A model generated the notes under the pieces. The model made no database searches, was not told the origin of the DNA, and was given only the letters and a program-made list of their open reading frames with translations. This document shows, piece after piece, positions 5,316 to 33,533 of a stretch of 64,000 nucleotides of DNA. A program made the translations under genes and the position numbers. Within the stretch, counting starts at the first letter, position 1. Every line of letters begins with the position of its first letter. This stretch comes from Lingula anatina (Eukaryota > Animalia > Brachiopoda), in NCBI GenBank assembly GCA_051362555.1, contig CM120648.1:18782587-18846586 (forward strand), written 5' to 3'.

Positions 5316-5529
5316 CCGCAGTAGAGGAGACCACAGAAAGGTGACCACGACTATTAGTCAACAGAGGTAGTGCATGGGACGCCAGATGAACAAATGACCG
5401 GAAGTTAACGTCCATACTGGTGGTCAGTCTCGTGAAGTTATCCTCTGTCCCCAGCCACGGCTGGACGTTAGGCGATATAGCATGGTTCAAAATCAGTATG
5501 TCCAGCCCGCCGAGTTTGTTTTCCGTAAA
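5316..5529 (-). CDS. Exon of 11-beta-HSD-like SDR
   Basis: FTENKLGGLDILILNHAI...MDVNFRSFVHLASHALPLLTNSRGHLSVVSSTAG. GGLDxLILNH is typical of the HSD11B1 family. The phase-1 donor joins in frame to the 4525-4662 exon. Confidence 0.88.
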
Positions 5530-6193
5530 CTTGGTTTATGAAAAAAACAACAATGTTTTTATAATATTTAACCAATCGTTTGTTGCAATTCTAGAGACAT
5601 TTTGCAGTTGTGCACACTTTAATTGCTGTACTGTTTTCACTGTTCGTTTAAAATTGCTTTCGTTTAGGTCACAAAAGTCGTCACGCTTGTTTCCATGAAT
5701 ATTATATTAATGATAAAAAACTAAACTTGGCATCTAATTGCTCATTATTCAGACATCTTCTTGTATATTTGACAATACTGTCATTCACAACGTTCACATT
5801 GTTCAGGACCCATATACTGTAACCCCTCTACCCATGATGACTGCCGAAATTGATAATGCCAAAAGTTTAGCTGGGTCCCCGATCTTAATTGCCCTGAGTG
5901 CCAGAAACGTATCATTCTCATCTAAATCGTTATTAGATCTTAGCTTTAGGCAACTAACCAGAAATATCCGAAAGGCTAACCTTTCTCGCTGATAACAATA
6001 CATCCATGGTTTAATAATTTTACTTGCTGTCAAAAATATCCAACAATAAACACGAGCATAAAAATCCCGCACACTACACTCTCTCCCCGAATGCGCATGC
6101 GTACAACTTTTCGTAGCGACTTACAACAAAACGATCGGACTTACGTGAAAAGTTACAATAATTTGTAAGTTACAACCTTTCGAGAATACGGCC

Positions 6194-11243: not shown

Positions 11244-11251
11244 GGTAAATA

Positions 11252-11505
11252 AACACATTGGACAAAAGAAGTGTCACCCCCTGCAGAGTAATGAAAGTTA
11301 TAATGCCTGGGTCTACTCTTAATATGACTATTGAATATAAAACCGCTGTACTATGGAATTGTATTTTTTTTTATTTATTATTATTATTATTATTTTTTTT
11401 TTTTTGTGAATTTTGATGTTTATAAAATGATACCAGGAGCATATCATTCCAGAGTCATTTATCTCCCCCAAAGTATTGGTTCACTTCTATTGTCCAGTGT
11501 GTGTA
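11252..11505. mobile_element. MITE: internal-deletion derivative of the Tc1 element at 44122-45586
   Basis: Shares both ends (cacattggacaaaagaagtgtcacccc...; ...gtcatttatctccccc...ctattgtccagtgtgtgta) with the Tc1 copy but has no transposase. Confidence 0.8.
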
Positions 11506-11529
11506 ACAAAAAAAAAAAAATAATAATAA

Positions 11530-11568
<39 letters not shown>

Positions 11569-11754
11569 AAATAAAAGAAAAATAAAAGAAAAATAAATCA
11601 AAATAAAATAAAAGAAAAATCACTGTTAAAGGTGATAATTGTGATGAGAAATATTAGTTTTACGCATATCTATTTTATCTGATATTAAATAATTATTTTC
11701 CAGTTACCTTTGTACGTTATTTCTTTTGCGCGTCTATAGTTTTGATATGAAAAA

Positions 11755-11835
11755 AATACCGGAACTCGTGTTGCGCAAAGGATTATGGTCTATATGAATG
11801 AGGCGCCATTTTCTTCAACAGCCAGGAAGTAACAG
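11755..11835 (+). promoter_or_regulatory. Candidate promoter region of the ROCO-caspase gene
   Basis: CpG-containing patch ~200 bp upstream of the ATG with ccggaa and caggaagt (ETS-like), ttgcgcaa (C/EBP-like palindrome) and gcgccatttt (YY1-like). Motif matching only. Confidence 0.3.
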
Positions 11836-12011
11836 GACGGAGATTGTGGAATAATGTTGAACATATTTGACAAAGAAAGAGATATGATCTGACTGACTTG
11901 TAGGTATATGAAGCAAGTGTTTATGTTACTGTGATCTCCAAGCTGCAGCACCAGAAGTGAACATAAAGTTTAGCAATCGCTGACAGAAATATTACAGGAT
12001 CTACTGTCGGA

Positions 12012-12945
12012 ATGGAAGCCATGTTAGGGCAGTCTAGACGAGGTGTAAATCCAAGATCAGGACAGGTGACAGTACAGACACAACCTCCATTAGCTGAACA
12101 GGAAACAAATACAACATCAGCTACACATCCTCGTGTTTTCTTAGAGAAGGCAGAATGTGTGCGTTCCTTCAGTCCTAAACTGGAAGATGATAGAAGAGGA
12201 ATATTCATAACTGGGTTAGCCATAGATAAGGAACACATGTTTGTTGTGGATAGATATAACAACAGAACAAAAGTATTCACACATGAAGGACAATTTAAGT
12301 TTGACATTAAAGTAAACGAACCATATGATGTGGCTGTGTCACAGACTGGTCACCTGTATATAACATCAGAGGGTGACAGTTGTGTTCAAGTGTACTCCAC
12401 CAGAGGTCAGCAGGTGACAACCATGGGTCAGGGTATACTGGACTTACCACAGGGTATTACACTGAACAGACAAGGTCATGTGATGGTTTGTGACAGTTTA
12501 AAGAAGTCCATCTTCACATTCCATGCAGACAGTGGACAGCTCCTGAACACTATTCCACTCAGTATGTGTGGATACCCATACTACATCACAGTGAACAGTG
12601 TGAATGATAACATTGTGATATCAGACATGGGGGGATACTGTGTACATGTGCTGTCACCTACTGGTGATCATCTGTACCAGTATGACGGCAGCAGAGAAGG
12701 CAGTGAACTGAGTTATCCACATGGAGTGTGCACAGACAGCTATGGTCACATCTTCATTGCTGACAGGGGTAACCACAGGATAGTGGCACTGAGTCCACAG
12801 GGACAGTTTATCAGATACATTGTCACTAAGGATGATGGGTTGAAGTTTCCCTGGGCAGTAGTCATCAACCCTGCTACTGGTCAGCTGGTGGTGGGAGAGG
12901 TGAGGGGCAATGTTAAGACATTCAAGTATACTGAACTGAAACAAG
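12012..12945 (+). CDS. Exon 1: NHL-repeat six-bladed beta-propeller (TRIM-NHL-like)
   Basis: Repeated NHL blades (PYDVAVSQTGHLYI, LDLPQGITLNRQGHVMVCD, LSYPHGVCTDSYGHIFIADRGNHRI, LKFPWAVVIN). The ORF ends over a strong phase-1 donor, AAG|gtgagt. Confidence 0.92.
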
Positions 12946-15900
12946 GTGAGTAACATGTATTAACTGTGGATAGATATGTTTATCATGTAAAATATTTGAA
13001 AGTTAATTAGTCTTACAATGTTTTTATCCATAAATATGTTTGCCTTTATTTCAATAAAAAACTTTTTAAGCATATTTAAATTCAGTGAGCACACAGCTGT
13101 GCTTCAGTAAAAATGTATGTAGAGTGGAGACATTTTCTATAGTTAATACTTTACTGTTACTGACCAATTTCTATGAACCCATTATAGTGATTAGGATTTT
13201 GAATAAGGATGAAGAACTGTTTTTAATGGAATTTATAGTATGCTTTATTTGTATTTTTATTAAGTCACAAGAAAAACATCTTACATTGTTTAATCCCTGA
13301 ACTTCTTGTCCATATGTCAGTAAAGAACAACTCAAATCTCACAACAGAACAGTCCAATTCTTCATATTCTTCATCTTGTAGCTGTTCATGAAAGCTTAGA
13401 TATACCTAAATTCTCAAATGTATTTTGTCAAATTTCTTGATGTCTTACCACTTCTAGATTCAAAGACATTTCATCACCAGTTTGTTGTTAACACACACAA
13501 ATAAATTAAATGTTGAAGTACTTTGGATGATACCTTATTTTCCTGACTTTGTGGATTGTTGTTTGCAAATAAAACTAGCAGACGACCATTTTTCATGAAA
13601 TGGAACTACTTTTCACAGGAAGTAGTGTATTCATACACAACAGTGACCTTGAGTTTGAAATACAAAAAAATAGTACATGCATTCATACTGTCACAGCATG
13701 CAAATTATAATGAAATATACAAAACTAAACACATTTTTATGTAACACAAAAAGTTAAATGCATTTTTATTTATTTATTTATTTATTATTATTATTATTAT
13801 ACTGGATAAAAACCTTGATGAAATGATTTTGATCACCTTTTTGGAAATTTTAAACTGCATGCTGATGGACCCACTTATTTATGTCATACACACTAAACAT
13901 AGATGAGAAATAATATATCACCATGAACATAAAGTAACTTGTATATAAATATATATATTTATATATATCATGCCTAATATGTATGCACTACAGGTTTAAT
14001 TCCAAATGTTATTCTTTTAAAAAAACCATATAAATAAAAACAATTTCTTAGAATGCTTGAAAGTGAAAATTTCTGAGTATGATTTATTTTAAACAGAACA
14101 ACTTTATGGCTGTTGACACTTCTGGAAAGTCCAATTATATAGGCAAAATAAACCATAAAGCATCCTGCTATTGGAATTAATAACAAATCATAAATAAACA
14201 TCAATGCTGCCATATCATACATAATACAAGAAAAATGTACGTCTACAGTGTTTTATTTACAATTTGGAACTAGAGAGTCAGATCACTCACTGACACTACA
14301 GAATACGAGTAATTTTTTACTTTCAGAAGTCAAATTTTTCCCACCTTTTTTGAAAGGGAATTTTAACTAGTAATGATGTGTACAACCATATATTATGTAA
14401 ATAAATTGTATATGAGTTGGTGTTGTTTATTAGTACCACCAGCGTATACGAGTAATTTTTTACTTTCAGAAGTCAAATTTTTCCCGCCTTTTTTGAAAGG
14501 GTAATTTTAACTAGTAATGATGTGTACAACCATATATTATGTAAATACATTGTATATGAATTGGTGTTGTTTATTAGTACCACCAGCGTATACGCTGGCG
14601 GTACTCATGGTTTTAGTCCCGACCTGTCTCGTACGGCTCCTGCGGCTCCGCCGGCTCTTGCGGCTCCGCAGTCGGGCGCAGTCGGAAACGAGTCACCGAA
14701 AAAAAAACATAACAGTTAAAATGGTCCAATCAAGGAGATGTTCAAATTGACCTAATTGACCTGTGTTTTCCTATCACTGATCACTCCTTTGATTTTCTAG
14801 ACAATAGGCCTATTGGTTTTCCTTGAAATGCATTATAAGTATTGCATATTTTTATGACTTTCCAGCAGCATTTTTATGTTGCTGGAGTACTCCTGCTACA
14901 CTCCGGGAGTACTTAGGCAACATTTTACGTTCTGTAAATGCATGCATTTCTAAGTTTTATAGTAAGCACACAGCTAGGTGTTAGTAAAAATGTATGTAGA
15001 GTGGAGAAACTTTTTACTGTTAGTGACCAATTTCCATTGAACCCATAAGAATTATTAGTGAGAATGAGGCACCTGCCCATCAGGCAAGTACAATATGTCT
15101 GTAAATCTACTTGCCCTGCTCCAAATGTACTTGGTCTGCTCCAAATTAAAAAAAAATGGGTGTTGATAAAATGTATTCTGAACAGTCTATAGGCAGATTC
15201 AGTACAATGGCATATGTATTTGTAGGTTGATAAGTTATTAACTAAAGAAAAAAAAAAACTTCATGTAATAATCATAATAGTGATACATAATACATGTATG
15301 ATGATACATTTCATCACATTATGATGCAACCACCATCAAATGGAAACAAAAATAAACTTGTTATTAAACCAACTCAGCAAATGTTTGGGCCAAGCAGATA
15401 TTTAGCATTGTACAATATACATGTATGCTGATTGCCATTTCAAGTCTAAATTAAACAAACATCATTGTCGCCTACAAAACTGATACAACTGCACCAAATA
15501 TCTCTTGCTATACGAAATACTTGTTGAAATGATGTTTTCAATAGAACTTATTTTTTATTTTATTTTTTTTTTATTTAATCATGAGAAAAACATTCTAAAA
15601 TGTTGATTCCCATTTCTTAGTATTATCATTATGCTTCACATATATATATCAAGGCTGTTGCAATGTTTTTTTTAACTAGTAAACAAAATCTCTGACATTG
15701 CTACAGCACATCATCTACTAGCTACAATTTTTACATCTGATGGTTTTTAGAAGTTACTGTCCCTGTGATTCATCAGCTAATATTGTTTTTATCTCAAGGT
15801 CAAACAGGCCAAAATCTCCTAAAAATGGGGGTTTAAAAAATATATATATATGTTTGTGCCAATTTTTAGAAACTACACTGACCTAAGTGGGGGGATTACA

Positions 15901-18095
15901 TTTTGGGACTTCATCTTCGGGAGTTTGGGGTCAATCGGTGCATTTTCACAGGAGAGGCAGCCATTAGATGCCAAAGCTGAAAACTCTCCATAAAACTGGA
16001 CCTGGAATAAGAAGTCACATACTGGCAGCCAAACTGTGACCTTGAAATTTACCTTTGACCTACTTTTCATCATAAACTAAGTCTTGCAAATTTTTTGCCT
16101 CTTAAAAAAAAACCAAAACATTTCCACCAATTTAGAGTAGGTACGAGGGAGTTTTTGTGCAGGGACGGAGCGATAAGGGGTAGTATCAGTGCAGGAAAAT
16201 ATAAGTACAGGAAGTATTGGTGTGGGAAATTTAAACTGTGACGTACCTTATACACATGTAGGTACTGGGAATTGTCGGCACGGGGGTTGTATAGGTACGG
16301 AGGAGTATTTGTGTGGGGAGTATCGATCAAGGGACGTACACGGAAAGGTACTGAGAGAATTGGTGCTGGGGCGTTTAAGGTACGCTGCAGTTTAGTAGCA
16401 GTAGCGAGAGTGTACCATTATTATGTTAAAAATTTGTCGTTGTGACAGGAAAGGTAGTTTTAATGGGTGGATTCAAATATGGTCGTAGGCACGATCTGTA
16501 CATATTTTTGTAACATACATTGAGCACTCCAATAACCTTTTCCCAGCCTATTTTGTCTTGATATTATCCTCCTCTGTGCTGCTCCTTCATTGTACCACCA
16601 GCCTAGGCGCTGGTGGTACACATGGTTTTAGTCCCGACCCGTATGTTCCACCGGCTCCGCCGGCTCCTGCGGCTCCTGCGGCTCCGCCGCCAAGTCACCG
16701 TTACCGCTTCTCCTCCTAGACTGTAAGGGCCTCCATACCCATCTCTTGGATTTAGGTCACCTATAATCTCAACTCGTTCCACGTAAAATTTGGGCTTTGT
16801 CGGTATTGGGGTCTAGGTGTGGCACTCATTGCAATGGACCCTTGTCCAAAAATGGCAAAATTAAATGCTAATTATCTCCCCTACGGAAGGAATTATGGAA
16901 AAAATTTCTACATACAGCTTTCCAAAAGTCATATGTGTAGATTTCAAATATGCCCTTGGATTTGACCTTTGACCCTTATTTCAAGGTCAAACGGGCCGAA
17001 ATTTTCAAAAAAACAAAATTTTTGCGCTCTTATTCAGACACCACACAGACTTAACTAATAATATTAATGGAAAGTGTTACTCTTTGGGTCATCTTTCATC
17101 TCTGTGAATTTGGGGTCAATCGGTGCATTTTCAAGGGAGTAGCGGCCATAATGTATCAAAACTGAAAACTGTCTCTAATTCGGGAACCGTTAATGCTAGA
17201 CACCCATTCTTTTTTTGCATTTTGTAGAGCATGTAAAGCCCAACACTGAATGTGGTCTCCGTTTTTTTTGTATTCCGTACGGTTTTCGAGTTAAGCTTTA
17301 TCAAAAAGTACATATTGGTGGTGAAAGCAAAATGTGCAGTATGGTAATGGATAATGAATTTTGAACTCCCGAAAAATAAAACATAAGGCTTGGCAAAGGA
17401 AGTCATATACTGGCAATCTAAATGTGAACTTAAAATTGACCTTTGACCTACTTTTCACCATGAACTGAACTTTGCAAATTTTGCTTCCCTTTTATCTCCA
17501 AAACTGGCAGAGATAGGTCCATAGTTACTATTGAACTTGAATAGGAAGTCATATACTGGCAATTTACTGTGACCTTAAAATTGACCTTTGACCGTCTTTT
17601 TACTATGAACTAAACTTTGCAAATTTTCTTTCTCCTTTATGTACAAAACTGACAGAGGTAGGTCCATAGTTACTATTGAACTTGAATAGGAAGTAATACA
17701 CTAGCAATCTGTGACCTTGAAATTGACCTTTGACCTACTTTTTATGATGAACTGCTTTTTGCATGTTTTCGGGCCTTTAAATCTGCAAAATTGGCAAAGA
17801 AATGCCCATGGTTGCTATTGAACTTGAATAGAAATTCATATTCTATGATATTGAAATTGACCTTTGACCTACTTTTTCACCATGAACTAAGCTTTGCATA
17901 TTTTCTTGCCTCTCATATCTTTCAAACTAGAAGAGATGTGCCCCTTGTTGCCCCTAGGTTTTCTCTTTTGTCAGCATATATGCACCATTGACAACACTTT
18001 TCAAGGAAAACCAATAGGCCTTTTTTCTAGAGAATACAGGAGTGATCAAGGGTAGGAAAATGCAAGTCAATTCGAAAATCTGCTTGATTGTATCA

Positions 18096-18133
<38 letters not shown>

Positions 18134-21100
18134 ATATTTTGAGAACTCTTATTGATTGCATCTTATAGAGCTTGTCAAGCACAAGACTGGTGATGGTGTC
18201 CCTTTTTGGAATGTGCTTCCTCCAGCTGGTGGTACAATATCCGGAGGCAGTATCGCCTCTCTGATCCTCTAGTTTACTGTTTAAATTCACTTCCTTTCTT
18301 GATTGACACTCCTTCCATCATCTTATCATCATCATTTAGACATAGCTGTTCAGTCTTGCTACTACTCACCTCCATCCTGTTACTCTCAAGCACATATGCA
18401 GGCATCCACCTCTCTAGATTTTCTCTCGCTTCCTCTCTGCTATCGCTTCACAAAAAATATAACGTCTGCAAACATCATCGTTCACCTTAGGCTTATCCAT
18501 GAGTCCTTTTGTCAATCTGAAGCATAACATTTGTATTACCAGGTGAGTTTAATGAACGGCTTCGCAGTTTGTGTGAAAGTGGTAAGATTCCAGTATACCG
18601 ACAGCGAGTAGCTATTGTTGGACCTTACGGTGTGGGAAAGACTCATCTCGCCAAGCGCCTCATCCATGAGGAATATATCAAAGAAGAAGATGCAAATACA
18701 ACTGGCGTGAATATATACCGCCATAGGTGTGTTGTCCATAAAGCTGGCCGATCCTGTTGGATCAGAGGAAAAGGTAAGCAGAATATAGGAAAACGTTTGA
18801 CACATATGGAATATGTTTATAAAGAATACAAAGAACAGAAGATAAGACATTTTCAATTTTACCGCATAATCCACAATAAGGAATTATACATACATGTACG
18901 TGTGGGTGTCGAAATGTGTCCTTCCCTATCTTAGTATGGTAGACGAGGGGCTGAGTGAAAAAGTACCTAAATAAGTGGTGCCTTTGTATTGTTATCAATC
19001 AGTTGACATACATGACACTTTACAATCTACTCCTACGTCCATTAATTATTTTTTAACTGGGTACAAACACGATAATTTCATTCTTTGTAAAAACACCATG
19101 CTTTATTTGACTCAATATTGAATTGAATTTTTCAGCGGTGTAGCCTGATACGTACACTCAGAAAGGGTACATTTAGATACAATGCTTGATCTACCTGTAT
19201 GATCCTTCCAACTATTTTCAGATGATCCAAAAGACCAGTTTGCACAAAACATGGCAATTGGAGTACAGAATTTAGATACGTTTTGCGAGCCGGACTTAAC
19301 AGTATTGGACCAAATGCCACTACAGGAATCCCTACCACATTCGGAAGAGAATATTAATAATATGCTGACAAATAGAGGTATTGTACATGATTGTCTCGAA
19401 TAGTTCATAGTTGGTGCAATTTAAACAGATATTTGTAGTTATTCTTCTTTTTTGCCAAGAGATTCCACCTTCTGTGTGTTTTTCGTTGGCCATTCTTCCT
19501 TGAAGACTGCATCCCAAATTTTATTTTATATGTTTAAATTTTGTAAAGAAATTCCTTTCTGAATTCTTTTATCCTAGCCATGTTTTTGTTTACTTCAAGG
19601 TTGAGTCATTTTCTGCTAGAATGGTGTTTGATATTATTCTTCTCTTTATTCTACAGCCGCTCCCCCTGATGACAGTGAATCACCTGCCTCTCCTGACAGA
19701 GCAGCAGGTAAGTAGTTCACATGTAGTAAAACAAGATTCTTGTGTATTGCTCAGAATGTTCGGGAGTTTTTCTTAGCTTGCCAATTAGGTATGTCAGGGT
19801 CTACATTCTTATTTTCATCAAACTGGGACTTAGAACTGAAACGGACATGAAGCCCAGTGGTAATCAAATTTTCTTAATGTCCATGTTTTTACTAGAAGAT
19901 GATTAAAATTTTGTGGTATTTTTACAGTTGACCATTATTGCATCAAAAACCTACTTTGTGCACTATCACCATAACGTTATAAAATGAAAACTGTTACCTA
20001 TTTTTTTATTTACAAAAAATGGTTCTTAGGATTGACAAACAGCTTAAATTAGAAAACCAGCTCTTTTGAATTATTGTTTTTATCAAATTATGCATTTTTT
20101 GTGAAATTTTTATTTATCTCATTCTGGTGTGAGCTTGAACTCTCATGGGCCTGAAGCCTTATGCTTACATCGTTATATACTGTTGTGCATAATTAAATTT
20201 TGGGGTTGACTGTGCAGTTAAGCATTGTATTACATTAGAACTGACAGCCTCCTATTTTGTGCATTATTATTTTCTGCTTTTTTAAAATTGTGACTTAGAT
20301 ATTTCATGGGCCTGAATACTGTTGCTAGTCACATTTGGGTGACAAGCCTCTAATCTTCCATTGGGTAACTACTAGCTAAATTCAGAGCTATAAGTTCACT
20401 TGCCTAAATTAAGTTTCAAGTGGCAATAAAATGAGATCATATAAAACACACATGTTGAGATTCCCTGTAGACTCCCATAGGTTAAGTTCTCTGCCAGATA
20501 ACAGTGTCCATAATAGGGAAGCAGTGATAATTATGCAGATAAATGTTGTTTAATTTTGCAAATTAGTTTTCAAAAAATTATTTTGTATAATGCCAACATT
20601 AATGCTAGTTTTAAAAGCAGCTTTACTGAAATGTTTTGTTTTTAATTTCTTTCAAACACTGAGGGTTTCAACTCAATTTTTAACTCCCCTCCACCTGAAG
20701 CTCTGCACATTTTCTGTTTTCCCACAAAAGCAGTTGTATTGGTATTTATGTATTTCAGCATTATGTAACATTATATTATTCTATGCACTGCTTTCATATG
20801 TCAAATATTGTGATTTTCATTACTAGTATGTGAATTTGAACTTTCGTGGTCCTGAAACTGTAATCTTATCATAGGGGCAGATTGGGATCGTCCTCAAGGT
20901 TTTCAGGAAGACGGTCAGATTTTAAAGTTAACATTGACGGGTATCTATTTTTTTTGTTGGAAGACCATCTAAAATGGAGGGTGGATTAACAAAGATATTT
21001 TAAAATACTGTCAGAAAATACATTTGGATCCGCTCCTGTTATTGACCATGTTACCTGTTGTGCATGACTTAAATTCAGTGTCGATTGACCGTGCTATTAC

Positions 21101-23462
21101 AAGTATTATTTATTATTGCATCAAAATGAGAAAATAACCTATTTTTTGCATCTTTATTTATTTATTTATTTATTTATTTATTTTGTCTGTAGACTTGTCC
21201 TTCAAGAAATACATGCCTTCAAGAAATCGACGAAAACTGGAAGTGCATGTTTTTTGCACTGTTTTTCCTGTCATGCCCATCGTAAACACTGTGTTGTCAA
21301 GTAAAAGGAAGCATCTGATACAAAGTATCAAACGCGGCATTGACGTGCTTGCTTGCGATGTGTTCAGTACACTTTGTTTACACTGACAATTCGAGGTCAG
21401 AAATGCACAATGTTTTTCTATGTAATTACGCAGTTTCAATTTTGATTAGTGAATTTTCTTTTATCTGCATGGTCATTTTCCGAACATTTGTATAAGCTAC
21501 GAAATATTTCTCATCGGAAAATCACCCAGCAGCTTTCCAAGTACAAGCGAGTGACGTCATGACGCACTTCCGGTTTTCGTCAAGATCTTGAAGGGATTAG
21601 CGTTATGGTTTGCTGCACATTTAAAGCGTTCTGTCTCTAAATGTACTTGACTGCTTGGATTGAAATTTACAGAACTTATTCCTCACATGATATCACACAT
21701 ATGTGCTTAATTTGAGAGCTTTAGCTGTTATATATTTTCTACAGTGCCCATTCAAAATTGAAAAAGAGCTATTTTCCGTCAATTTTTCTTGAAGGGCAGG
21801 TCTACATTTGACAGATTTGCTGTCTTGTTTTATCTGGGTACAAACACGACAATTTAATTTTCTGTAAAATAAGTCTTCTTTATATGACTGAGGATTATTT
21901 TTCTTTTTGCCAAGGGATTCCACCTTCTATGTGTTTTTTGTTGGCCATTATACCTTATGTGCCTTGAAGACTGGGCACTTGATACCAATTATACTTGATC
22001 TTATTAGACGCATTTTCGATGTAATTTATTTATTTTTATACAATATTTATAGACCAATATCCCAAAGTTATATGTTAAAATTTTGTAAAGAAATTCCTTT
22101 ATCTTAGCCACATTTTTGTTTACTTTAAGATTGAGTCATTTTCTGCTAGAATGGTGTTTGATATTCTTCTTCTCTTTATTCTACAGCCGCTCCACCTGCC
22201 TCTCCTGACAGAGCAGCAGGTAAGTAGTGCACATGTAGTAAAACAAGATTCCGTCTTTTGCTCATAATCTGCGAGAGTTGTTCTTAGCTTGTCGATTAAG
22301 TATGTGAGTTCCTGCATTCTTATTTTCATCAAACTGTATTAATAATGTTATATTAAAATTGACTATACCTTACAATTTTAATTGATTTTAATGAATGTTA
22401 AAACATTCAGTATTTATCACCCAGTTATGTTTTGAGCTTACTCACTTGTATTCAACAGAGAGGATACATTTTTAAGAAAAAAATGTTTTTTTTTTGGAAA
22501 TTGCCGATAAACCTTCAGAAACAGATGAAAGCTTCTAATTTATTTGATAACTGTTTCACAAAGTTAATTGACACTAAATACATTCAAATTTTGTCAATGA
22601 TTACAATACTTTTTTATGCTAAAAAGTTTTATTTTAACCGCACTGTTTATTGTACAGTCCTTTCCAAAGGTGAAAGTGGATCTCATACCTCTGGGGAAGA
22701 AAACATGAGTAGTATAAGAATGTTGACGATATGTCGATGTATGAACAGTCCCTGACAAATGAAATAAATTAGATTGAAAGCATGTCTATAAAGATTAAGG
22801 TCTAGTCTCTCTCTCTCTCTCTCTCTCTCAAACCCCCCCCCTTGAAGAAGGCACATCAGTTGAAAACTCAATTGGGCGCTTGATACCAAATATACTTATT
22901 ACGTGCATTTTCAGTCTAATTTATTTATTTTTATACAATATTTATACAATATACTGCGGGATTAATACGATGATTTAGATGAATATGCATGCATTGTAAT
23001 ACATAACAATATGCATTATGCTAAAATCAGTTAGTTTGGACATAGCTTATTGTATTCCTTGCAGTGGCAGAAAGGGACCATCTAGATGATATTGACAAGG
23101 AGCTATTGGAAAAAATTGAGAAAATTGCTCGAGGAGAACATGTGGAGCCAGAGAAACAGGTCACAATTTGGGATTTTGCAGGACAGGATGTCTACTACAC
23201 CACGCACCAAACATTCCTCTCAGAGCGGATCATCTACTTGTTGGTATTCCGACTTGACCAGGACCTCGATGATAAAATCCGTGTATACAGGGGAGAGAAG
23301 ACGCTGAAAGGTATTGTTGAGCTTTATGTATATATCTTTTTAGTATTAGTTTTTAGTAGTGATAATTTTAAATGGTTCCGATGAGTGTTTTAGATTTTAA
23401 TATTGTAGTAATTTTAAGGATTTTAGTTATATTATCCATTGTAAGCCGCCCAATAAGAAACA

Positions 23463-23513
<51 letters not shown>

Positions 23514-26500
23514 TAATTGGTGCTATTTTTTAGCAATGCTGAGGAGAAAACACTGATTAATATTCATCTTTGCAATAACCTCAAGGCTTTATATGTATTT
23601 TTCAGAGTTTATTATGTTTTGGTTAAACTCAATCCATATGCACACTATTGGAAAATTGAGGGAAGAAGACAAAAATGCCATGCCATACGTCTTGATTATT
23701 GGAACTCATAAGGACATGTTATGCCCACAGGTGAAAACACTTTTCTTATCACAATTATTCAATTACTACCATACTTATTCTATGTATAATTTCTATCCCT
23801 TCAACCATATCACATTGTGATTCCTGATGAGTGATTTAATTATTGTACCACCAGCGTTAGCGCTGGCGGTACACATGGTTTTGGTCCCGTCCAGATCGTT
23901 CTGCCGGCTCCGCCGGACGGCTACCGTTACCGCTTCTCCTCCTAGACCGTAAGGGCCCCCGTACCCATCTCTTGGATTTAGGTCACCTATAATCTCAACT
24001 CGTTCCACGTAAAATTTGGGCTTTGTCGGTATTGGGGTCTGGGTGTGGCACTCATTGCAATGCACGCTTGTCCAAAAATGGCAAAATTAAATGCTAATTA
24101 TCTACCCTACGGAAGGGGTTATGGGAAAAATTTCTACAGACGGCTTTCCAAAAGTCATATGTGTAGATTTCAAATATGCCCTTGGATTTGACCTTTGACC
24201 TTTATTTCAAGGTCAAACGGGCCAAAATTTTCAAAAAAATAAAAATTTTTACGAAAAAAATTTTTTTTGCTCTGTTATTCAGACACCACACAGACTTAAC
24301 CAATTATATTATTGGAAAGTGTTACCCTTCAGGTCATCTTTCATCTCCGTGAATTTGGGATCAATCGGTGCATTTTCACGGGAGTAGCGGCCATAAGATG
24401 CCGAAACTGAAAACTGTCTCTAATTCGGGAACCGTTAATGCTAGAGACCCATTCTTTTTTGCATTTTGTAGATCATGTAAAGCCCAACACTGAAAGTGGT
24501 CTCCGTTTTTTTTTTATTCCAAACGGTTTTCCAGTTACGGTATCAAAAAGTACATATTAGTGGTGAAAGCAAAATGTGCAGTAGGGTATAGTCAGGTGGC
24601 TAAGTCCAAATTTTATCCAGAATTGTGAGAAAGATGATAAAAGCATGAAACTTTCCACGATGAATGACCATTGGGTGTTCATCTTTTTTGGATCGGGGGG
24701 GTTGACAAACACATAATGGTCATTCATCGTGGAAAAAATTTCATGCTTTTATCATCTTTTGCACAATTCTGGATAAAATTTGGACTTAGCCGCCTGACTA
24801 CTTTTCACCATGAACTAAACTTTGCATATTTTGCTTCCCTTTTATCTCCAAAACTGGCAGAGATAGGTCCATAGTTACTATTGAAGTTGAATGGGAAGTC
24901 ATATACTGGCAGTCTAAATGTGACCTTGAAATTGACCTTTGACCTACTTTTCACCATGAACTAACCTTTGCAAATTTTGCTTCCCTTTTATCTCCAAAAC
25001 TGGCAGAGATAGGTCCATAGTTACTATTGAACTTGAATAGGAAGTCATATACTGGCAATCCAAATGTGACCTTGAAATTGACCTTTGACCTACTTTTCAC
25101 CATGAACTGAACTTTGCAAATTTTGCTGCCCTTTTATCTCCAAATCTGGCAGAGATAGGTCCATAGTTACTATTGAACTTGAATAGGAAGTAAAACACTG
25201 GCAATCAAAATGTGACCTTGAAATTGACCTTTGACCTACTTTTCACCATGAACTGAACTTTGCAAATTTTGCTGCCCTTTTATCTCCAAAACTGGCAGAG
25301 ATAGGTCCATAGTTACTATTGAACTTGAATAGGAAGTCATATACTGGCAATCCAAATGTGACCTTGAAATTGACCTTTGACCTACTTTTCACCATGAACT
25401 GAACTTTGCAAATTTTGCTGCCCTTTTATCTCCAAATCTGGCAGAGATAAGTCCATAGTTACTATTGAACTTGAATAGGAAGTCATACACTGGCAATCTA
25501 AATGTGACCTTGAAATTGACCTTTGACCTACTTTTCACCATGAACTGAACTTTGCAAATTTTGCTGCCCTTTTATCTCCAAATCTGGCAGAGATAGGTCC
25601 ATAGTTACTATTGAACTTGAATAGGAAGTCATACACAGGCAATCCAAATGTGACCTTGAAATTGACCTTTGACCTACTTTTCACCATGAACTGAACTTTG
25701 CAAATTTTGCTGCCCTTTTATCTCCAAATCTGGCAGAGATAGGTCCATAGTTACTATTGAACTTGAATAGGAAGTCATACACTGGCAATCTAAATGTGAC
25801 CTTGAAATTGACCTTTGACCTACTTTTCACCATGAACTGAAATTTGCAAATCTTGCTGCCCTTTTATCTCCAAAACTGGCAGAGATAGGTCCATAGTTAC
25901 TATTGAACTTGAATAGGAAGTCATACACTGGCAATCTAAATGTGACCTTGAAATTGACCTTTGACCTACTTTCCACCATGAACTGAACTTTGCAAATTTT
26001 GCTTCCCTTTTATCTCCAAAACTGGCAGAGATAGGTCCATAGTTACTATTGAACTTGAATAGGAAGTCATATACTGGCAGTCCAAATGTGACCTTGAAAT
26101 TGACCTTTGACCTACTTTTCACCATGAACTGAACTTTGCAAATTTTGCTGCCCTTTTATCTCCAAATCTGGCAGAGATAAGTCCATAGTTACTATTGAAC
26201 TTGAATAGGAAGTCATACACTGGCAATCTAAATGTGACCTTGAAATTGACCTTTGACCTACTTTTCACCATGAACTGAACTTTGCAAATTTTGCTGCCCT
26301 TTTAACTCCTAACCTGGCAGAGATAGGTCCATAGTTACCATTGAACTTGAATAGGAAGTCATATACTGGCAATCTTACTGTGAAATTGACCTTTGACCTA
26401 CCTTTTGATGAATTTAACTTTGATTGTACCATTTTAAGTTATATATATTTTTTTTGCATATTTTGAAAATTCTTGTTGATTGCGTTTTTACAGCTTGTCA

Positions 26501-29500
26501 AGCAAAAGACTGGTGGCTGTGTCCCTTATTTTGTGTATGTGGGGGTCTATATGAATGTGCTTGCTCCAGCCGGTGGTACAATATTCGGAGGCGGTATCGC
26601 CTCTCTGATCCTCTAGTTTAGAAACTTTTCACTATGTGACTATTTGTGGATGGCATGATTAAATGTTGGGGGAAAAGGGTGTTCCTTGCCCCCTGTACTC
26701 CATCCTAATTTTATAGGTTGACCGTTCATTGCAACATACCCCATTTCTCAACTTGAACAAAGTGGACTATATCATATACACACATACACATACACACACC
26801 CCAGTAATTGTTTTCTTTCACACTGACAATTTAACATTATTATATGGTAATGAAGAACAGCTACAAAAATGTCTTAACTAGTTTTTATTCACAGGGCGAC
26901 GTTGAAAAGATTTTTGATAAACTCAAGAAGTGTCTCGACGACAGGCAGGTACTCAAGGACCACGTCTACCGATATTTTGCCATAAGCAACTTGGCCGAAG
27001 ATGATGGGGAGTTCGCTGAAATAAAAAAAGCGATCGAAGATTTGTGCGGTTATAGCAGCAACAGTATTGCTACCGTTCAACATCTTTCAGTGAATTGGAT
27101 TAAATTGGAAATGAATTTGGCAGAGAAGAGTGAAGAAACCCCCATCATATCTATTGAAAAACTGAGGGAAATGGCAAAAAGGGTAGGACTCCCCGATGAA
27201 GAATTACAAGAAAAATTCATTCCTTACCATCACCGTCAAGGCGACATCCTACACTTCAAAGTTGATGGACTGGAAAATGTCGTCATAATAGATCCACTTT
27301 GGTTAGCAGTTGTGTTTTCTGCCATCATGACCAATGCCAGCAGTCAACCTGGAGGCAGTCACTTTGATCTCCTGAAAGACGATCTGAAAAGAGGAGTGCT
27401 CAATGAGGAGGTATTTGATGAATATCTAAAACAAATCAAAATGGCCGAAAAAAAGACTGAAATCATTCAACTTATGCTGCATTTCGACTTGATGTTAGAA
27501 ATATCCCAAGCAGTTGAAAACCCTCTGCCTGGGTCTGGAAAGAGAAGATTCGTCGTGCCCAGTATGCTGGTATCCAATATCAGTGTAAATAACGCCTTGT
27601 CTGAGACGGATCCACAGAAATATTTGCTTATCGCATTCCCTCACATTCTGTTTCCTATCGGGTTGTTTCATCGTCTGATAATCCGTCTTCTTAGGAAGTA
27701 TAGAGCTCAGGAATATAAACATAACATTCCAGTTGTTGGGTTTGACTATGCCTCCTTCCGTTTGGGAGACGAACAATCGGTGCTCCATCTCGCCATTGAA
27801 GAAAGGGCCATGAGAATGATGATAACAAATGCTACTGGAAACAAACCAAAACCTGACATATACTCCAACGCACGGGAAACTGTTGAAAAAGAACTGTCAA
27901 CTCTTAAGGACACGTACTGTCCCAGTATGCAGTTAGGCTTTCGCATTCGGTTAAATGACAAAGGAAAAGATATTCCAATAAAAGCAGAAGACGTCCAAGA
28001 AAACGATGAGATATGTAGATCTGTAGAGGGCACTGAAATGCCAATTGATGTGACACCGTATCGTGTTTGGTTTTCAGGTAAGCATTAAAATTTTAGGTAG
28101 TTTTACTGTGAACAGACATTATGTTCCTGAATATAATTAGGGGTAATGTAGTCATTGAAATCGGTGATACTTAAACTGATGTAAATGCAACTAATCATAT
28201 TGGGTGATGTACTATGATGTACATGAAGAGAATTAATATTTCAAATTGTTGCCAATAAACCAAACTTCATATATTTTAAAATAATGTAACTTGATAAATA
28301 CCCAAAGGTATTTTTTATAATCCCCGAAAATGATATCTTTACAGATCTTATCAGCATTTTTCCCCTTGGCAAATTTTTGCCCATCGCCTTTGTTAGAACA
28401 GTATAAATATCGCCCACAAAGTCATGCAATTTATATTTTAATCATTCCAACAAAACAAGTTTTACATGGGCATCAACGTCTGTGTGAGGGTAAGACTGTT
28501 GCAGTTCTATGTGCCGAACATTTTTATGTACAGAAACAGATGTGTCTGTACACATAGCCGTCACCTGCGTCTGTCGTCGCAGTTGCCGTAGGCTGTCACC
28601 ATTGTCGCCGTTGCCGTGCACTCAGCAATAACACGATAAGTGGAATACCATTTTACATTTTGTATTCAAATTTGCATATATGTAGCACTGATAACACAAT
28701 ATAAGAAAAACAGATGGGCAAATTGCCATTATACTCACAGGACTGGTCAACCTTTCTAAAACGTAGGACGAGTTCGAAAATCAGCATAATCGGGCCATTA
28801 TTTTTTAAGTTATGCTGTTTTTTCACATTTCTTCAGATTCAATTCTTAGGCATGTTAACAGTCTCATTATTTAACTAATAAGATACCTAAAAGTGTTTGT
28901 TTGACATTTCCTGCATCTTTACAACATTGTTAGTTGATTATGTAAAAATGATGGTAAACTTGTTATCATGTATTGTATAATAAAGTGTCAAAAATGGAAA
29001 TAAACTCATATAATTGCAGTTTGTAAGATTCAATCATTCACTATGTTCAGAAACTCAGAATGGAGGAAATTGGACATAAAACACTGTTCTATTGATATTT
29101 TTCACATCTCATCAATTTTCTAAGTTGATCATATGAAAATGGCAGTAAACTGTTAATTTTGTTATATGTTAAAAAATTGTCTACATTTTGGCATTTTCAA
29201 GGTGTGACTTTGAAGTTCCATGGGCCTGAAGACCTTTGCTAGTCACATTTTCTGAATATCCGTGATACTAATATTTTATTATTAAAGATTGATGGTTATT
29301 ATCCTGTTAAACATGTCAGTGAGAGATAAAACCAAAATTAACAATCATTTCGGAACGACACTTGGATTTTGCAAGGAAAAGTACGGCGTAGGATAGGACA
29401 TAAAGTATTTTGATGGGGCCCTAGAGGCCAAGTGCCAATATATAATATATATTAGGCCAATCTTACCATTTTAGCAGCCCCAGAGAATCAAGACCGTCGT

Positions 29501-32500
29501 GCAGCCAAGTGTCCTGAAAACGAGGCAAGTTATGAGCTTTTAAATACGTTTGTGTCTAAGTACTGTGCAGCAAACACAGAACGTTATTATAACGTTACCA
29601 TATCATATGTCCAAAAACATTTTGGTAACATTATAGGAACATTCTGTGTTTGCTGACCATTATCCTCACTTGCACAAGTTTTAGTAAGACCATGAAATTA
29701 AATATACTTGTATATACACAATCATAAGAAAAATTGGATACACTTAGGCATAAATGCGCACTTTTCACTCTGTTACACTTGCTATACGACCTCCGATATT
29801 TCTAATGATAAATTTCACATAAAGACAGTGTATGTGTGCGTTTCAGTACAAGAACGATTCCGAACCGAGAGGTCGTGCACTCATTATCAACAACAAGACA
29901 TTTTCCGTGGACTGGCTTCCAGAACGTGATGGTACCGAGGTAGATGTTGTTGCCTTGAGGAAACTATTCCATTACCTCCATTATGAGACAGACGTTATCA
30001 GTAACCTGACTGCAAATGTGAGTTCATTAATAAGATCATGGTGTGTTTGTAATAAAACGAACATCGTAAAAGCCAAATGGCTTTTAGGTTTCAAAGAAAG
30101 ACTAACATACTTTTTGGTGATATCTAAATATATTTATCAGTGACACAAAGATGATACAATTGATACTTGAACCTTTTGGTTCAAAACAGGTGTTGTCAAA
30201 CAAACTTTTCGGTCACATTTTATTATGTTTATCTATTTCACTGCAATATATTTTTCTACCAAAATGAAGCTTTTCACTCGTTTCTGTTCATTGCATGTAT
30301 TTGTATTTATTTGAGAGACATATGGTACACTGTATAGTTATACAACATTGGTCAAAAAGGTTGTCCCACCCCTATTTCCATGTACTTTTATTTACAGGTG
30401 ATCACCTTACAACTATAAATTGTTAGAAATAGATCACTGAATTGGAGTGTGCAATGCAAAGGAGAACTAACCCCATAAAAACCTGGGCCAAATCCCCCAT
30501 CTTGTTTAAGAAGAATCGGACAATATTCCACAAAGCAGAATTGTAACCCGTGTTGAAGGCTTGTCGCGCCGTCTACAGGAGATAATTGCAGTACGCGGTA
30601 GACGCACACGCTGTTAGGCACGTGACCTTTAACAAGCATACACTAATGCTAATTGTGTGTGAATTTGGTGACATTTGATGGCGTCTTTTCAATTTTATAG
30701 ACATTTCTTTACATCTGTAGAAGTCACAGAGAAACAGTCGATTTGAGGGGGTTCCTCTTATAAATTTTACTAAATGGTATAAAATATGTATATTTTCACC
30801 ACTATTTTGTATTTTTTAAACCATTAATCACGTTAGACACGGTATCCGTAATAAAAAGCACTATTTCTAACAATTTATAGCTGTAAGGTGATCATCTGTA
30901 AATAAAAGTACATGGAAATAGGGGTGGGACAACCTTTTTGACCAATGTTGTATACAGACAGACATGGCGCACAATCTACAAATATACCACCATATGTCCG
31001 TCCTCGGTGGCTACTGCCTTTCACATTCTCTGTTAGCGTCAAGTATGAATTGATGCTGCCATTTTGCTTTACGCTGTCGTTGATAACCCAATTCCGTATG
31101 TACCACGTCTCTGCAGTCATTGCATGCTATTTCATTTGAAGTACACTATGTTTTTATGTCACTACTTCTTTTATTTTAATGTGTAAAGGAAATGAAGGAA
31201 GAAATAGAACAAGAAAGTCAAAGAAACGATCACAAGATCTACGATTCTTTCATCTTGTTTCTACTGAGCCATGGTACCGAGGGTGCTGTTTATGGAACGG
31301 ATGGCTATCCTTTACCCTTCAAATATATCAAAGCCATTTTGAATAACAGGAAATGTCTTGGCCTGTCGGGCAAACCGAAAATGATATTTATTCAGGCTTG
31401 CCAGGGAAGTAAGTTATGGAATGTATTACACAAGCTTGAATACCTGTGATGAAAATAACATGCAAAATTATTAAACAAATGTATTGGGATATTAAACTGT
31501 ATTAAGTTTGTCTCCTTTAAATTATATTCAGCCACACGAAACGAATGACGCTTAGTATTATGTAATTGTTTAATTAGTTAATACTGATATCAATTCTAAC
31601 TTATATGTAAACATGTAATCCACATAAGGGTGTATGGGGTATTTCATTTTTTTTCCATATTCACCCAGAGATATTGGACAGTGGGTCACTCCTGGACGGA
31701 CAAACAGTTCAACAACCACAGCAAGCACCACCTGCAGCAAACCTTGGCGATGAGGTACCCGATGCTCCACACGAGATTCCAAAGCCATCCAATGATCCGA
31801 CTATGTCTGATTTTCTCGAGGTCCATGCGACTTCACCAGGTACTTTAACCGTGTTTCTTTGTATGCCATTTTACTTAGGCCTTACAAATGTGTTTTTCGT
31901 CAGAAAAAAAAAAATCAAAATGATAAGGTGCACGTGGTGATGCTGGGATTATGGCATTTTGCCTCAGGTAGAAGATGGTGTGCATTTTGTGGTCTTTCGA
32001 CATATTGTGGAGAACTGTATTGTACGCACTACATTACTGCACCAGTAAATACTGAAAATGGTGCATGTATTTTTATACAGTATCAAATAAAATATATGTG
32101 CCAAATTTAATTAAAATGTACGTACATTTTTACCATAATGCTTTTAAAAATGCGTTCACGATCACTAAGAAAAAGGAAAGTGTGTCGAGACGTTACCTTA
32201 TTGTATTTGGGAAGCTGTCAGACAATTTCTTTTGATAAAATAGACTTTGTAGCTTATGCAAATGTTGAGAAAAAAACATGCCGATTATGGAAAATTCATA
32301 TATCAAAATTTAAACTATGTATTTCGACAGATTTTAATTTAATTTAATTTAAGAATCGCGATCGTGTATTTCTGACATTGAATTCTCAGTGTGCACAAAG
32401 TGTAAGCATCGAAGGCATTCATGAATGTGGACATGTTTGATTCTTTGAATCAGACGCTTCATGTTACTTGATAGCGCAGAGGCACGCCAGGGAAAACAGA

Positions 32501-33533
32501 GGGAGAAAAACAAGTTCTGGTTTTTCTTGATTGAAGGCTTTGATTTGTTGAAGGGCAATTCTGTATAGCCTGGTTTCCAAAGATCGTGTCGCAGGCATAT
32601 CAGCAAAACAAAATGCATCGCCAAGGACCCGAATGCCATGGCAAAATGTTTTAAGTTTACTTTGTTATTTTGATACAAATAAGCTTCTGGTTGACATAGA
32701 TTTGACTGGTCCTCAACTTTCCATGCTGCACTGTGCCTGACCGAAAAAAAAAAAAACCCTTAAAATGAGTAGTGATTCAGTGTTCCAATCATGCCTGCGA
32801 CAGCTAGAAATGTGACCCATATTATTTGCCTTTTGGAGATCATTTCAGGTCGGTTCACTGTAACACTATCGGCAAATAAACTTTACTAATAGTTCCTCGA
32901 TCTACGCGATTTATGAAATTTGCTTTTCCGCACTCTCAGTGACACTAAGTACTGTTATATTAACAAAATAAAAATAAACAGTACCGTTGCATCTACGAGT
33001 AAATAATTCGTTAAGGCTTCAGTATTTTCTGTTTCAGATTACGTATCTTGGCGACACACGGGAAAGGGAACATGGTTTGTTCAATCCATTGTCGATACAT
33101 TTTATCGTGAAGCACACAAATATGACGTTTTACAAATGCTGGTGAATGTAAGTACTGAAATAACCTGAACTACATTATTTTACATTGAAAGTGTGTTAAA
33201 TTCATTAGAACACCAATCAAATATAAAACATAGCTACCAGAAGAAGTGACATGTCGTAAGAGGTGACTTATGTAAATACAGTCCAACATGCACAGCCTTT
33301 TTAAGAAGCAGTGAAATGCTTTTCTGTATATTTTGACTGTTTAATCAGAACTGTTCACTTCATGTAATATTTTATTTCACCAGGTCAATCACGCGATCTC
33401 TCAAAAGCAAACAACAATGGGCAATAAACAGGCACCAGAGATAGTTACCAGCTTACGCAAGAAAGTTTTCTTCAACATAACTCCAGGTAAGCAAAAAGAA
33501 TCACATCTTCCCGAGGTGTATTCGGCCGAATAA
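12012..33533 (+). CDS. Multi-exon gene: NHL beta-propeller - ROC GTPase - COR - caspase fusion (~1276 aa)
   Basis: Exons 12012-12945, 18543-18773, 19222-19377, 19657-19707, 22187-22219, 23065-23310, 23606-23730, 26895-28077, 29475-29524, 29847-30017, 31189-31408, 31669-31839, 33038-33147, 33384-33533. All junctions are phase-compatible, total 3831 nt, no internal stops. Confidence 0.78.
14304..14592. repeat. Tandem duplication, ~143 bp x2
   Basis: tacgagtaattttttactttcagaagtc...tagtaccaccagcgta occurs twice in succession. Confidence 0.85.
16586..18274 (+). mobile_element. Helentron/HINE-like non-autonomous rolling-circle element, copy A
   Basis: Subterminal inverted motif ttgtaccacc...ggtggtacaa, 5' hairpin and ccggctcc microrepeats, 3' hairpin gaggcagtatcgcctc, ends ctagt before T; 3-4 diverged internal satellite units. 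Partial copies at ~14570-14830 and ~15790-16100. Confidence 0.75.
18543..18773 (+). CDS. Exon 2: ROC GTPase N-part (G1 P-loop, G2)
   Basis: ttaccag acceptor (phase 1); RVAIVGPYGVGKTHLAKRL...ANTTGVNI; donor AAG|gtaagc. Confidence 0.88.
19222..19377 (+). CDS. Exon 3: insertion within ROC
   Basis: ttttcag acceptor; DDPKDQFAQNMAIGVQNL...LTNR; phase 1-1, 156 nt, open. Confidence 0.65.
19657..19707 (+). CDS. Exon 4: low-complexity micro-exon within ROC insert
   Basis: Polypyrimidine tract + ctacag; AAPPDDSESPASPDRAA; CAG|gtaagt; phase 1-1. Confidence 0.7.
22187..22219 (+). CDS. Exon 5: duplicated micro-exon (paralog of exon 4)
   Basis: AAPPASPDRAA with splice sites identical to exon 4 and an 18-nt in-frame deletion; flanking intron is also duplicated. 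Confidence 0.6.
23065..23310 (+). CDS. Exon 6: ROC G3 motif
   Basis: [31 protein letters not shown], the canonical ROC WDFAGQxxYxxTHxxFL; phase 1-1. Confidence 0.93.
23606..23730 (+). CDS. Exon 7: ROC G4 motif
   Basis: EFIMFWLNSIH...PYVLIIGTHKD; phase 1-0. Confidence 0.9.
24589..24800. mobile_element. Foldback MITE with TAG...CTA termini (Academ-like), nested in the HINE
   Basis: tagtcaggtggctaagtccaaattttatccagaattgtg / cacaattctggataaaatttggacttagccgcctgacta. Shares aaaagcatgaaacttt with the 229-2022 TIR; absent from HINE copy A. Confidence 0.8.
24801..26400. repeat. Satellite array, 146-bp unit x ~11
   Basis: cttttcaccatgaact...gaaattgacctttgaccta recurs at 24801, 24947, 25093 and so on. 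Confidence 0.95.
26895..28077 (+). CDS. Exon 8: ROC G5 + COR domain
   Basis: FAISN (G5), WIKLE, YHHRQGDILHF, VIIDPLWL, FVVPSML and FPIGLFHRLIIRLL are COR-type motifs; phase 0-1; donor CAG|gtaagc. Confidence 0.9.
29475..29524 (+). CDS. Exon 9: COR-caspase linker micro-exon with GC donor
   Basis: ttttagcag NAGNAG acceptor; AAPENQDRRAAKCPENE; donor GAG|gcaagt. It converts phase 1 to phase 0, exactly as needed. Confidence 0.62.
29847..30017 (+). CDS. Exon 10: caspase large subunit start
   Basis: YKNDSEPRGRALIINNKTF...ERDGTEVDVVALRKLF...NLTA; S1 Arg in RxGT; donor gtgagt. Confidence 0.93.
30343..30950. mobile_element. Tc1/mariner-type MITE in a caspase intron
   Basis: Near-perfect ~85-bp TIRs caacattggtcaaaaaggttgtcccaccc...; TA on both sides. 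Confidence 0.88.
31189..31408 (+). CDS. Exon 11: caspase catalytic His/Cys
   Basis: DSFILFLLSHG...VYGTDG...LSGKPKMIFIQACQG; donor gtaagt. Confidence 0.96.
31669..31839 (+). CDS. Exon 12: caspase intersubunit linker and start of small subunit
   Basis: KILDSGSLLDG...DEVPDA...PTMSDFLEVHATSP; phase 1-1. Confidence 0.85.
33038..33147 (+). CDS. Exon 13: caspase small subunit
   Basis: DYVSWRHTGKGTWFVQSIVDTFYREAHKYDVLQMLVN, with SWR and GxWF motifs. Too short for the ORF track; read manually. Confidence 0.93.
33384..33533 (+). CDS. Exon 14: caspase C-terminus
   Basis: VNHAISQK...KQAPEIVTSLRKKVFF, then NITPGKQKESHLPEVYSAE*. An internal CAG|gtaagc at 33486 could splice further. Confidence 0.88.
   Translation, partial: VNHAISQKQTTMGNKQAPEIVTSLRKKVFFNITPGKQKESHLPEVYSAE

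Follow-up and report, generated by a model that had tools for sequence, protein, structure and literature searches.

A 64,000-nucleotide stretch of the genome of the brachiopod Lingula anatina (contig CM120648.1, positions 18,782,587 to 18,846,586; the window, numbered from its first letter) is predicted with high confidence to hold a single gene of 14 exons that encodes an NHL propeller, a ROC GTPase domain, a COR domain and a caspase in one protein. The predicted product is a caspase-bearing member of the ROCO family, and neither an NLR nor a TRIM protein, though it probably works like an NLR. The reading preferred here, with moderate confidence, is that of a one-chain, NLR-like intracellular immune receptor in which a ROC-COR dimer pairs two caspases. 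The ROC-COR-caspase theme itself has precedent; what is new is the NHL sensor with its strongly variable top face, together with the exchange of effectors.

Domain content and linkage of the predicted gene

An earlier note, made from the DNA letters, had listed 14 phase-compatible exons with intact GTPase motifs (G1 to G5) and caspase residues, and the list held. Joined along the + strand from 12012 to 33533, the exons yield 3,831 nucleotides and 1,276 amino acids with zero internal stops, and every motif quoted in that note was found on the + strand of the window. AG is present at 13 of 13 acceptors and GT at 12 of 13 donors, the remaining donor (after 29524) being GC. All Pfam domains scored above their cut-offs in the exon open reading frames (ORFs): NHL at 79 bits (cut-off 20), Roc at 28 and 34 bits (27), COR-A at 77 bits (35) and Peptidase_C14 at 36 and 71 bits (21). 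ROC is followed directly by COR in exon order, the arrangement that marks the ROCO family, and the caspase has the His-Cys dyad, QACxG, two S1 arginines and a p20, a linker and a p10. CARD and DED prodomains had no Pfam match in the eight gene ORFs scanned (the exons left out being of 33-156 nucleotides or p10), and NACHT and NB-ARC appeared below cut-off only, as P-loop-sized matches (14.6 vs 26.7 bits and 13.3 vs 23.5 bits, respectively).

That these parts form one gene, as the note had also claimed, is supported by RefSeq relatives which share the NHL-to-ROC and COR-to-caspase joins. A search with exon 8, which encodes COR, gave six matches, all of them L. anatina RefSeq proteins (five at 58-83% identity, one at 23%), and the NHL exon search found Roc in two of 31 longer matching proteins, P0008 and P0009. 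P0009 (LOC106159696) has the same start, the same NHL-to-ROC join and exons 1-7, with nine substitutions over amino acids 312-592, and its tail is read-through into intron 7 of the window save two substitutions and one indel; judged by these identities, it is an allele or very young duplicate of the window gene. P0008 is a second Lingula NHL-ROC-COR model, and COR is joined to a caspase in three Lingula models (P0002, P0006 and P0048). No second copy of ROC or COR was found elsewhere in the 64-kb window, and assignment of the caspase to the N-terminus of a downstream ROCO protein was rejected on that ground.

Four of nine raw-read RNA runs from the same species (X1, X4, X7 and X8) were mapped to 8300-24750, the NHL-ROC part of the gene. 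Sense-strand depth in X4 was 20-34 over the NHL exon bins, with 32 reads at 12386, 37-39 reads at four exon-3 sites and about 1 in the intron bins after the NHL exon; the four exon-3 letters in these reads encode exactly the P0009 residues. A copy near-identical to the window gene is transcribed. Over the NHL exon, X1 reached a depth of about 2 at most.

Exon 1 (12012..12945, on the + strand like all the others) carries the start methionine, a disordered tail of about 40 amino acids and the six-bladed NHL propeller (amino acids 1-311), and ends in phase 1. An in-frame stop lies upstream, RNA depth is below 0.5 at 9398-11044, and the start methionine is common to the RefSeq relatives P0008, P0009 and P0010, all without RING or B-box; RING, B-box and coiled coil are likewise absent from the model before the NHL. 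Exon 2 (18543..18773; Pfam Roc; 96% identity to P0009) supplies the N-terminal part of ROC with G1 (GPYGVGKT, 18620) and the G2 threonine (18698). The G2 label, like that of G5 below, was assigned by position and the general consensus. Exon 3 (19222..19377) begins a long insert within ROC, at about amino acids 389-500; its boundary was picked to restore the frame and was afterwards matched by P0009, a start at 19136 having been rejected as out of frame. Exon 4 (19657..19707; 51 nucleotides) encodes low-complexity insert and is matched in P0009 and P0001, and exon 5 (22187..22219; 33 nucleotides) is a shorter duplicate of it which may be optional, the frame being kept either way; the second repeat of P0009 at this position is longer. 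Both lie within duplicated intron segments (19420-19830 and 21830-22340), which suggests that the insert grows by micro-exon duplication.

The remaining GTPase motifs, all intact, are G3 (WDFAGQ, 23169) in exon 6 (23065..23310; Pfam Roc, 34 bits), G4 (GTHKD, 23701) in exon 7 (23606..23730) and G5 (26979) in exon 8. Over exons 6-7, identity is 99% with P0009 and 98% with P0001. Exon 8 (26895..28077) also encodes the whole of COR, holds the COR-A match, ends in a phase-1 donor and is 83, 73, 69, 63 and 58% identical to P0001, P0002, P0003, P0004 and P0005, respectively; it has no Pfam COR-B match, and its 73%-identical paralogue P0002 is modelled with a COR fold. Exon 9 (29475..29524; 50 nucleotides), the COR-caspase linker with the GC donor, was included on phase fit, has no homologue match and is the least supported exon. 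The caspase p20 begins in exon 10 (29847..30017; Peptidase_C14, 36 bits) with the first S1 arginine (29925) and continues in exon 11 (31189..31408; 71 bits; 83% identity to P0204) with the catalytic histidine (31270) and the cysteine of QACQG (31399). Exon 12 (31669..31839; 79% identity to P0204, with identical exon span) spans the inter-subunit linker, in which the aspartate at 31761 is a candidate cleavage site, and the start of p10. Exon 13 (33038..33147; 53% identity to P0006) contains SWR with the second S1 arginine (33052), and exon 14 (33384..33533) the end of p10 and the stop. A strong internal donor lies in exon 14 at 33486, and the gene may really end in another exon downstream of this one.

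Elsewhere in the window, 146-bp tandem arrays occur in intronic repeat elements at 24798-26383 (10.9 copies) and 17397-17905 (3.6 copies), the copy at 17.4 kb showing an RNA depth of 900-2,300 that probably comes from copies elsewhere. Short-chain dehydrogenase exons (adh_short) lie on the - strand at 4466-6120, adjoined by a tandem array of 23 68-bp units at 3020-4585. Transposon remnants are present at 44182-44745, 46991-47338 and 50309-51181 (a weak Tc1-like helix-turn-helix, a weak DDE_Tnp_4 and a reverse transcriptase ORF, RVT_1, E 1e-34).

Variable propeller, exchanged modules and relatives in other animals

AlphaFold2 modelled the NHL exon as a six-bladed propeller of 24 strands with a predicted local distance difference test score (pLDDT) of 87. 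The best Foldseek matches were the NHL domains of TRIM3 and TRIM2 (template modelling score 0.85 to TRIM3 NHL), followed by Thin, Brat and LIN-41, and the closest TRIM-type relatives were Lingula TRIM-NHL proteins at 65-69% identity. By this likeness, the propeller was probably taken from the Lingula TRIM-NHL family without RING and B-box.

The top, or ligand, face of an NHL propeller is defined as its b-c and d-a loops (PMC4015489), and the definition was applied to strands a-d as assigned from the AlphaFold2 model. Among four NHL copies of about 86% identity, 36 of 71 top-loop positions were variable, against 2 of 53 bottom-loop positions (P=3e-9), and three or more states occurred at 24 of the former and 0 of the latter. 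The disordered tail was variable at 4 of 42 positions (P=6e-6 against the top face), and its conservation argues against mere lack of constraint on that face. Between the window protein and P0009, differences were found at 27 of 70 top-loop sites and at 0 of 52 bottom-loop sites. The proposal of the earlier note that the propeller senses a ligand gains support from this one-sided variability, the ligand itself being putative. The window top face has 11 lysine and arginine and 12 aspartate and glutamate residues in 81 positions (8-13 and 9-14 across the four copies), so that it is charge-neutral, with several aromatic residues, unlike the basic RNA-binding face of Brat. Since the face is not net basic, a protein or glycan would be a more likely ligand than RNA.

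Exons 1 and 8 both end in phase 1 and flank ROC-COR. The window-type NHL is also joined to a distant ROC-COR in P0008 and to an unrelated region in P0010, and five close paralogues change sequence right after the last COR motif, at the exon 8 donor, where COR is followed by a caspase, HEPN_DZIP3, a weak RHIM match (E 0.007) or a short tail; in P0005 HEPN is placed in front. C-terminal effectors thus vary among closely related CORs within one genome. In the ROC-COR tree the window is sister to the HEPN-ending P0001 (Shimodaira-Hasegawa-like approximate likelihood ratio test, SH-aLRT, 99-100), and its grouping with the caspase-ending P0002 was rejected (approximately unbiased test, p-AU 4e-7). 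Closely related paralogues have exchanged their N- and C-terminal modules at the exon borders, both in phase 1, on either side of ROC-COR. In p20 the window caspase shares only 49% identity with P0002, against the 79-83% identity of exons 12 and 11 to P0204. The latter is a caspase fragment with aspartate in place of the catalytic cysteine, an accession next to P0001 and a contig of equal length, which suggests tandem ROCO genes with different ends; an older model fuses this caspase to the downstream ROC-COR-HEPN. A decoy or a decaying tandem copy is possible for P0204 and P0205.

For a wider census 189 proteins were fetched, the search covering the best 150 of 9,305 matches, so that the counts are lower bounds. 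ROC/COR together with a caspase was found in at least 12 of the 189, the caspase lying behind in nine and in front in three, and NHL with ROC in at least two. Among the matches listed, caspase-behind forms came from Owenia (P0038 and P0039), Branchiostoma floridae (P0060), Exaiptasia (P0065 and P0191) and two ENA records, and caspase-first forms from Potamilus, Antedon and Branchiostoma, two of them without the catalytic cysteine. At least 18 of the 58 ROC/COR proteins fetched had a Death domain, at least two DED and at least two TIR; as predicted from these domain matches, there is a large, little-described invertebrate ROCO-death-fold repertoire. In Owenia P0038 and Lingula P0006, Bcl-2, ROC, COR and caspase occur in one chain, with 42% identity over ROC-COR-caspase and a Bcl-2 match of 82 bits in the former and a weak 18.7 bits in the latter; they are candidate mitochondria-linked caspase activators in animals without APAF-1. 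In Exaiptasia, a single RefSeq model (P0191) combines HEPN, an AAA-type domain, ROC, COR and caspase.

Phylogenetic trees were built for both modules, the caspase tree, a quick search, leaving out P0138 and matches with several or short caspase hits, and the ROC-COR tree leaving out P0060, P0091, P0124 and P0159, which had no regular-expression match to G3. The fusion label changed eight times on the caspase tree and eight times on the ROC-COR tree (quick trees with weak deep support), which points to repeated fusion or loss of ROC-COR-caspase. One origin for all caspase-bearing ROC-CORs was rejected (p-AU 8e-4, for a group named after the first tree and with long branches). The window caspase groups with Lingula CARD-, PARP- and RIG-I-fused caspases and with Owenia ROC-caspases (SH-aLRT 88-94 in the quick tree, not starred), a grouping that matches the caspase-Y group of PMC11463336.

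Proposed activation of the caspase and competing readings

In the proposed mechanism a ligand of foreign origin or linked to damage would be bound at the propeller's variable top face. By analogy with Chlorobium Roco, the resting receptor would be a GTP-bound monomer, in which ligand binding would favour hydrolysis or nucleotide loss and lead to a ROC-COR dimer. The dimer would bring the two attached caspases together for mutual activation; as for initiator caspases, forced proximity would lead to caspase dimerisation and cleavage of the linker at the aspartate near amino acid 1165, and the output, on the same kind of analogy, could be cell death or the processing of a cytokine or pore-former. 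The earlier note had proposed that the caspase fires in cis. Initiator caspases fire as dimers, so that activation would take place between two chains instead. The best-studied Roco is monomeric with GTP and dimeric when bound to GDP or empty (PMC5714945); by analogy, the caspases would probably fire in the GDP-bound or empty form rather than the GTP form.

Structural modelling was carried out on the paralogue P0002. Its modelled COR (residues 262-593) aligned with Chlorobium COR in VIA-align at Z 19.4, with a root-mean-square deviation of 3.0 over 284 aligned residues, showing a full COR fold in the model. The caspase of the same model matched caspase-8, -9 and -3 at Z 32-33, and Foldseek with this model gave caspases only among the matches listed. 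A two-copy fold of the exon-8 product, run with no alignment, scored 0.00 twice and speaks neither for nor against binding.

Several observations weigh against the single gene and the receptor function proposed for it. Reads across 12945>18543, which the earlier note had named as a check, were not seen, and no exon-boundary joint occurs among the 15 of 182 read joints listed, all of which lie at 17289-21105 and are repeat-derived. The X4 letters are P0009-type, so that the window allele is not provably the expressed one, and coverage in X7 and X8 is 11-19 per direction over the NHL exon and at most 0.56 over exons 3-4; NHL reads can therefore come from other copies and NHL depth is no gauge of the window gene, a pattern which fits NHL copies joined to other partners (P0008 and P0010). 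Exon 9 was placed by phase fit and has a GC donor, the COR exon, when read beyond its donor, meets a stop three codons later, a poly(A)-type hexamer lies at 28254, and the supporting RefSeq entries are gene models rather than inspected cDNAs. ROC/COR-caspase and NHL-ROC occur in the numbers given above, but all three modules together in 0 of the 189 fetched proteins (best 150 of 9,305 matches included). Some of these points would suit two genes or an alternative last exon, with NHL-ROC-COR ending at 28088 and the caspase as a separate downstream gene, an arrangement for which the in-frame stop at 28086-28088, the hexamer, an in-frame ATG five codons before exon 10, the separation of the similar caspase P0204 from its neighbour in RefSeq and the lack of junction reads in the mapped 8300-24750 also speak. 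It is nevertheless improbable, since a consensus donor (CAG/gtaagc) stands at 28077, exactly where five paralogues change sequence, the two parts are just 1.8 kb apart, three Lingula paralogues have COR-caspase fusions, and the tree neighbours of the caspase carry long N-terminal domains (CARD, PARP, ROC-COR) of which a lone gene here would have none. Slightly less probable still is a recent exon-shuffling product without function, arisen in a birth-and-death gene family, as might be suspected from the instability of the family (truncated models, the Cys-to-Asp caspase copy adjoining P0001, intronic repeats) and from an allele in the X4 reads that is not the window's, but not easily reconciled with 1,276 codons without a stop, every catalytic motif intact, strongly non-random propeller variation, transcription of a near-identical copy and the retention of ROC-COR-caspase in an annelid, a cephalochordate and a cnidarian.

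Other points of this kind concern sensing and output. Gene conversion could also homogenise the disordered tail, the top loops are most variable also in 17 more distant Lingula TRIM-NHL proteins (entropy 1.77 vs 0.78), and propeller variability was measured at the level of paralogue protein sequences. The catalytic cysteine has been lost in the fused caspases P0073 and P0138 as well as in the close relative P0204, and the trees are quick searches with long branches. In favour of the preferred reading, caspase, death-fold, TIR, HEPN and RHIM partners all act via dimers or oligomers, and such a partner (RHIM-like in the last case) was found in 37 of the 58 ROC/COR proteins fetched (best 150 of 9,305 included), a count biased by the caspase-bearing query. 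It is rather unlikely that the same protein is wired otherwise, with ROC-COR as an autoinhibition or membrane-targeting switch and the caspase dimerised by a multivalent ligand or outside scaffold, not by COR. A GTP-opened monomer has been proposed for LRRK2. CtRoco with GTP bound is a monomer, open and active (PMC11052575), the caspase is N-terminal to ROC in three of the 12 fusions (best 150 of 9,305), where COR-end geometry cannot apply, and exon 8 lacks a Pfam COR-B match; set against this is the full COR fold in the P0002 model. Very improbable, finally, is a propeller that reads no pathogen product but a polymorphic self marker, as in allorecognition, or RNA. By appearance P0009 is an allele or a very young duplicate of the window gene, but the two differ at 27 of 70 top-loop sites, in the manner of allorecognition genes; Lingula, however, is a solitary animal. 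The derivation of the propeller from TRIM-NHL proteins, with the top face of Brat binding RNA (PMC4015489), would favour RNA. The top face here is, unlike that of Brat, not net basic, and no signal peptide is evident by eye in the window protein.

Wider meaning and relation to known systems

APAF-1 was not detected in L. anatina and not found in molluscs, annelids or brachiopods (PMC11463336), and a receptor that brings both switch and caspase with it is a candidate caspase activator in these groups, and one that can be put to the test. It is proposed tentatively that marine invertebrates hold a second, GTPase-based class of NLR-like receptors, in which ROC-COR dimer switches would have gained, through exon shuffling, hypervariable sensors (here a TRIM-derived NHL propeller) and effectors activated by proximity (caspase, HEPN RNase, death fold, TIR or RHIM). 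Its caspase-fused members, including the Bcl-2-ROC-COR-caspase of Lingula and Owenia, would be adaptor-free caspase-activation platforms that replace the apoptosome where APAF-1 was lost. For LRRK2 it is a matter of continuing debate in which nucleotide state ROC-COR is 'on' (PMC6337361). A protease fused to ROC-COR and activated as a dimer would let the ROCO field read out dimerisation directly in cells. The variable face of the propeller is a candidate new pattern-recognition scaffold in animals.

The earlier note gave no characterised protein of this architecture, the core of which is already in print. No paper on NHL-ROCO or NHL-ROC-COR-caspase was found in the open literature (subscription journals lie mostly outside it), and ROCO-caspase is not mentioned in the accessible parts of PMC4104024 or PMC13012124. 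ROC(-COR)-caspase proteins have been predicted for bacteria (PMC8195603) and noted in Owenia (PMC11463336), and occur in the 12 or more fetched proteins described above. Bacterial LRR-Roc-COR proteins carry at least 24 effectors, caspase included, with predicted function (PMC8195603). The window protein shares with these LRR-AP-GTPase(Roc)-COR-effector proteins a fast-evolving N-terminal repeat sensor, the Roc-COR core, a variable C-terminal effector and the presence of several paralogues per genome with different effectors; it differs in having NHL and no N-terminal LRR, introns at module borders and a metazoan-type caspase. One Owenia fusiformis caspase of the caspase-Y group has a ROC prodomain and is treated in the main text of PMC11463336 as a species-specific oddity, with COR not mentioned. 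Owenia P0038 and P0039 share the placing of ROC-COR before an intact caspase, but the ROC-COR of P0038 is only about 26% identical to that of the window, and P0038 is headed by Bcl-2, not NHL.

The Roc-COR tandem is shared with LRRK1/2, DAPK1, MFHAS1 and Chlorobium Roco, the window family profile matching LRRK2 at E 2e-38 and CtRoco at 1e-35. In contrast to the human ROCO proteins, no kinase, LRR, ankyrin or death domain was found in the window protein, which has a long ROC insert and a protease as output. Brown-algal LRR-ROC-COR proteins have been proposed as immune receptors with a diversifying sensor (PMC11378527), and the ROCO-TIR proteins of the mollusc Aplysia join ROCO to an immune effector domain (PMC9334734), although neither a caspase nor NHL is described there in the accessible parts of these sources. 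Caspases have also been grafted onto RIG-I-like receptors in Lingula itself (PMC8998645). With the STAND proteins, NLRs and APAF-1, the window protein shares the logic of sensor, switch and effector, a variable sensor and a caspase output; it differs in its Ras-like GTPase, in likely forming a dimer rather than an AAA+ ring, in the direct fusion of the caspase with no CARD or DED, and in having the sensor at the N-terminus and the effector at the C-terminus.

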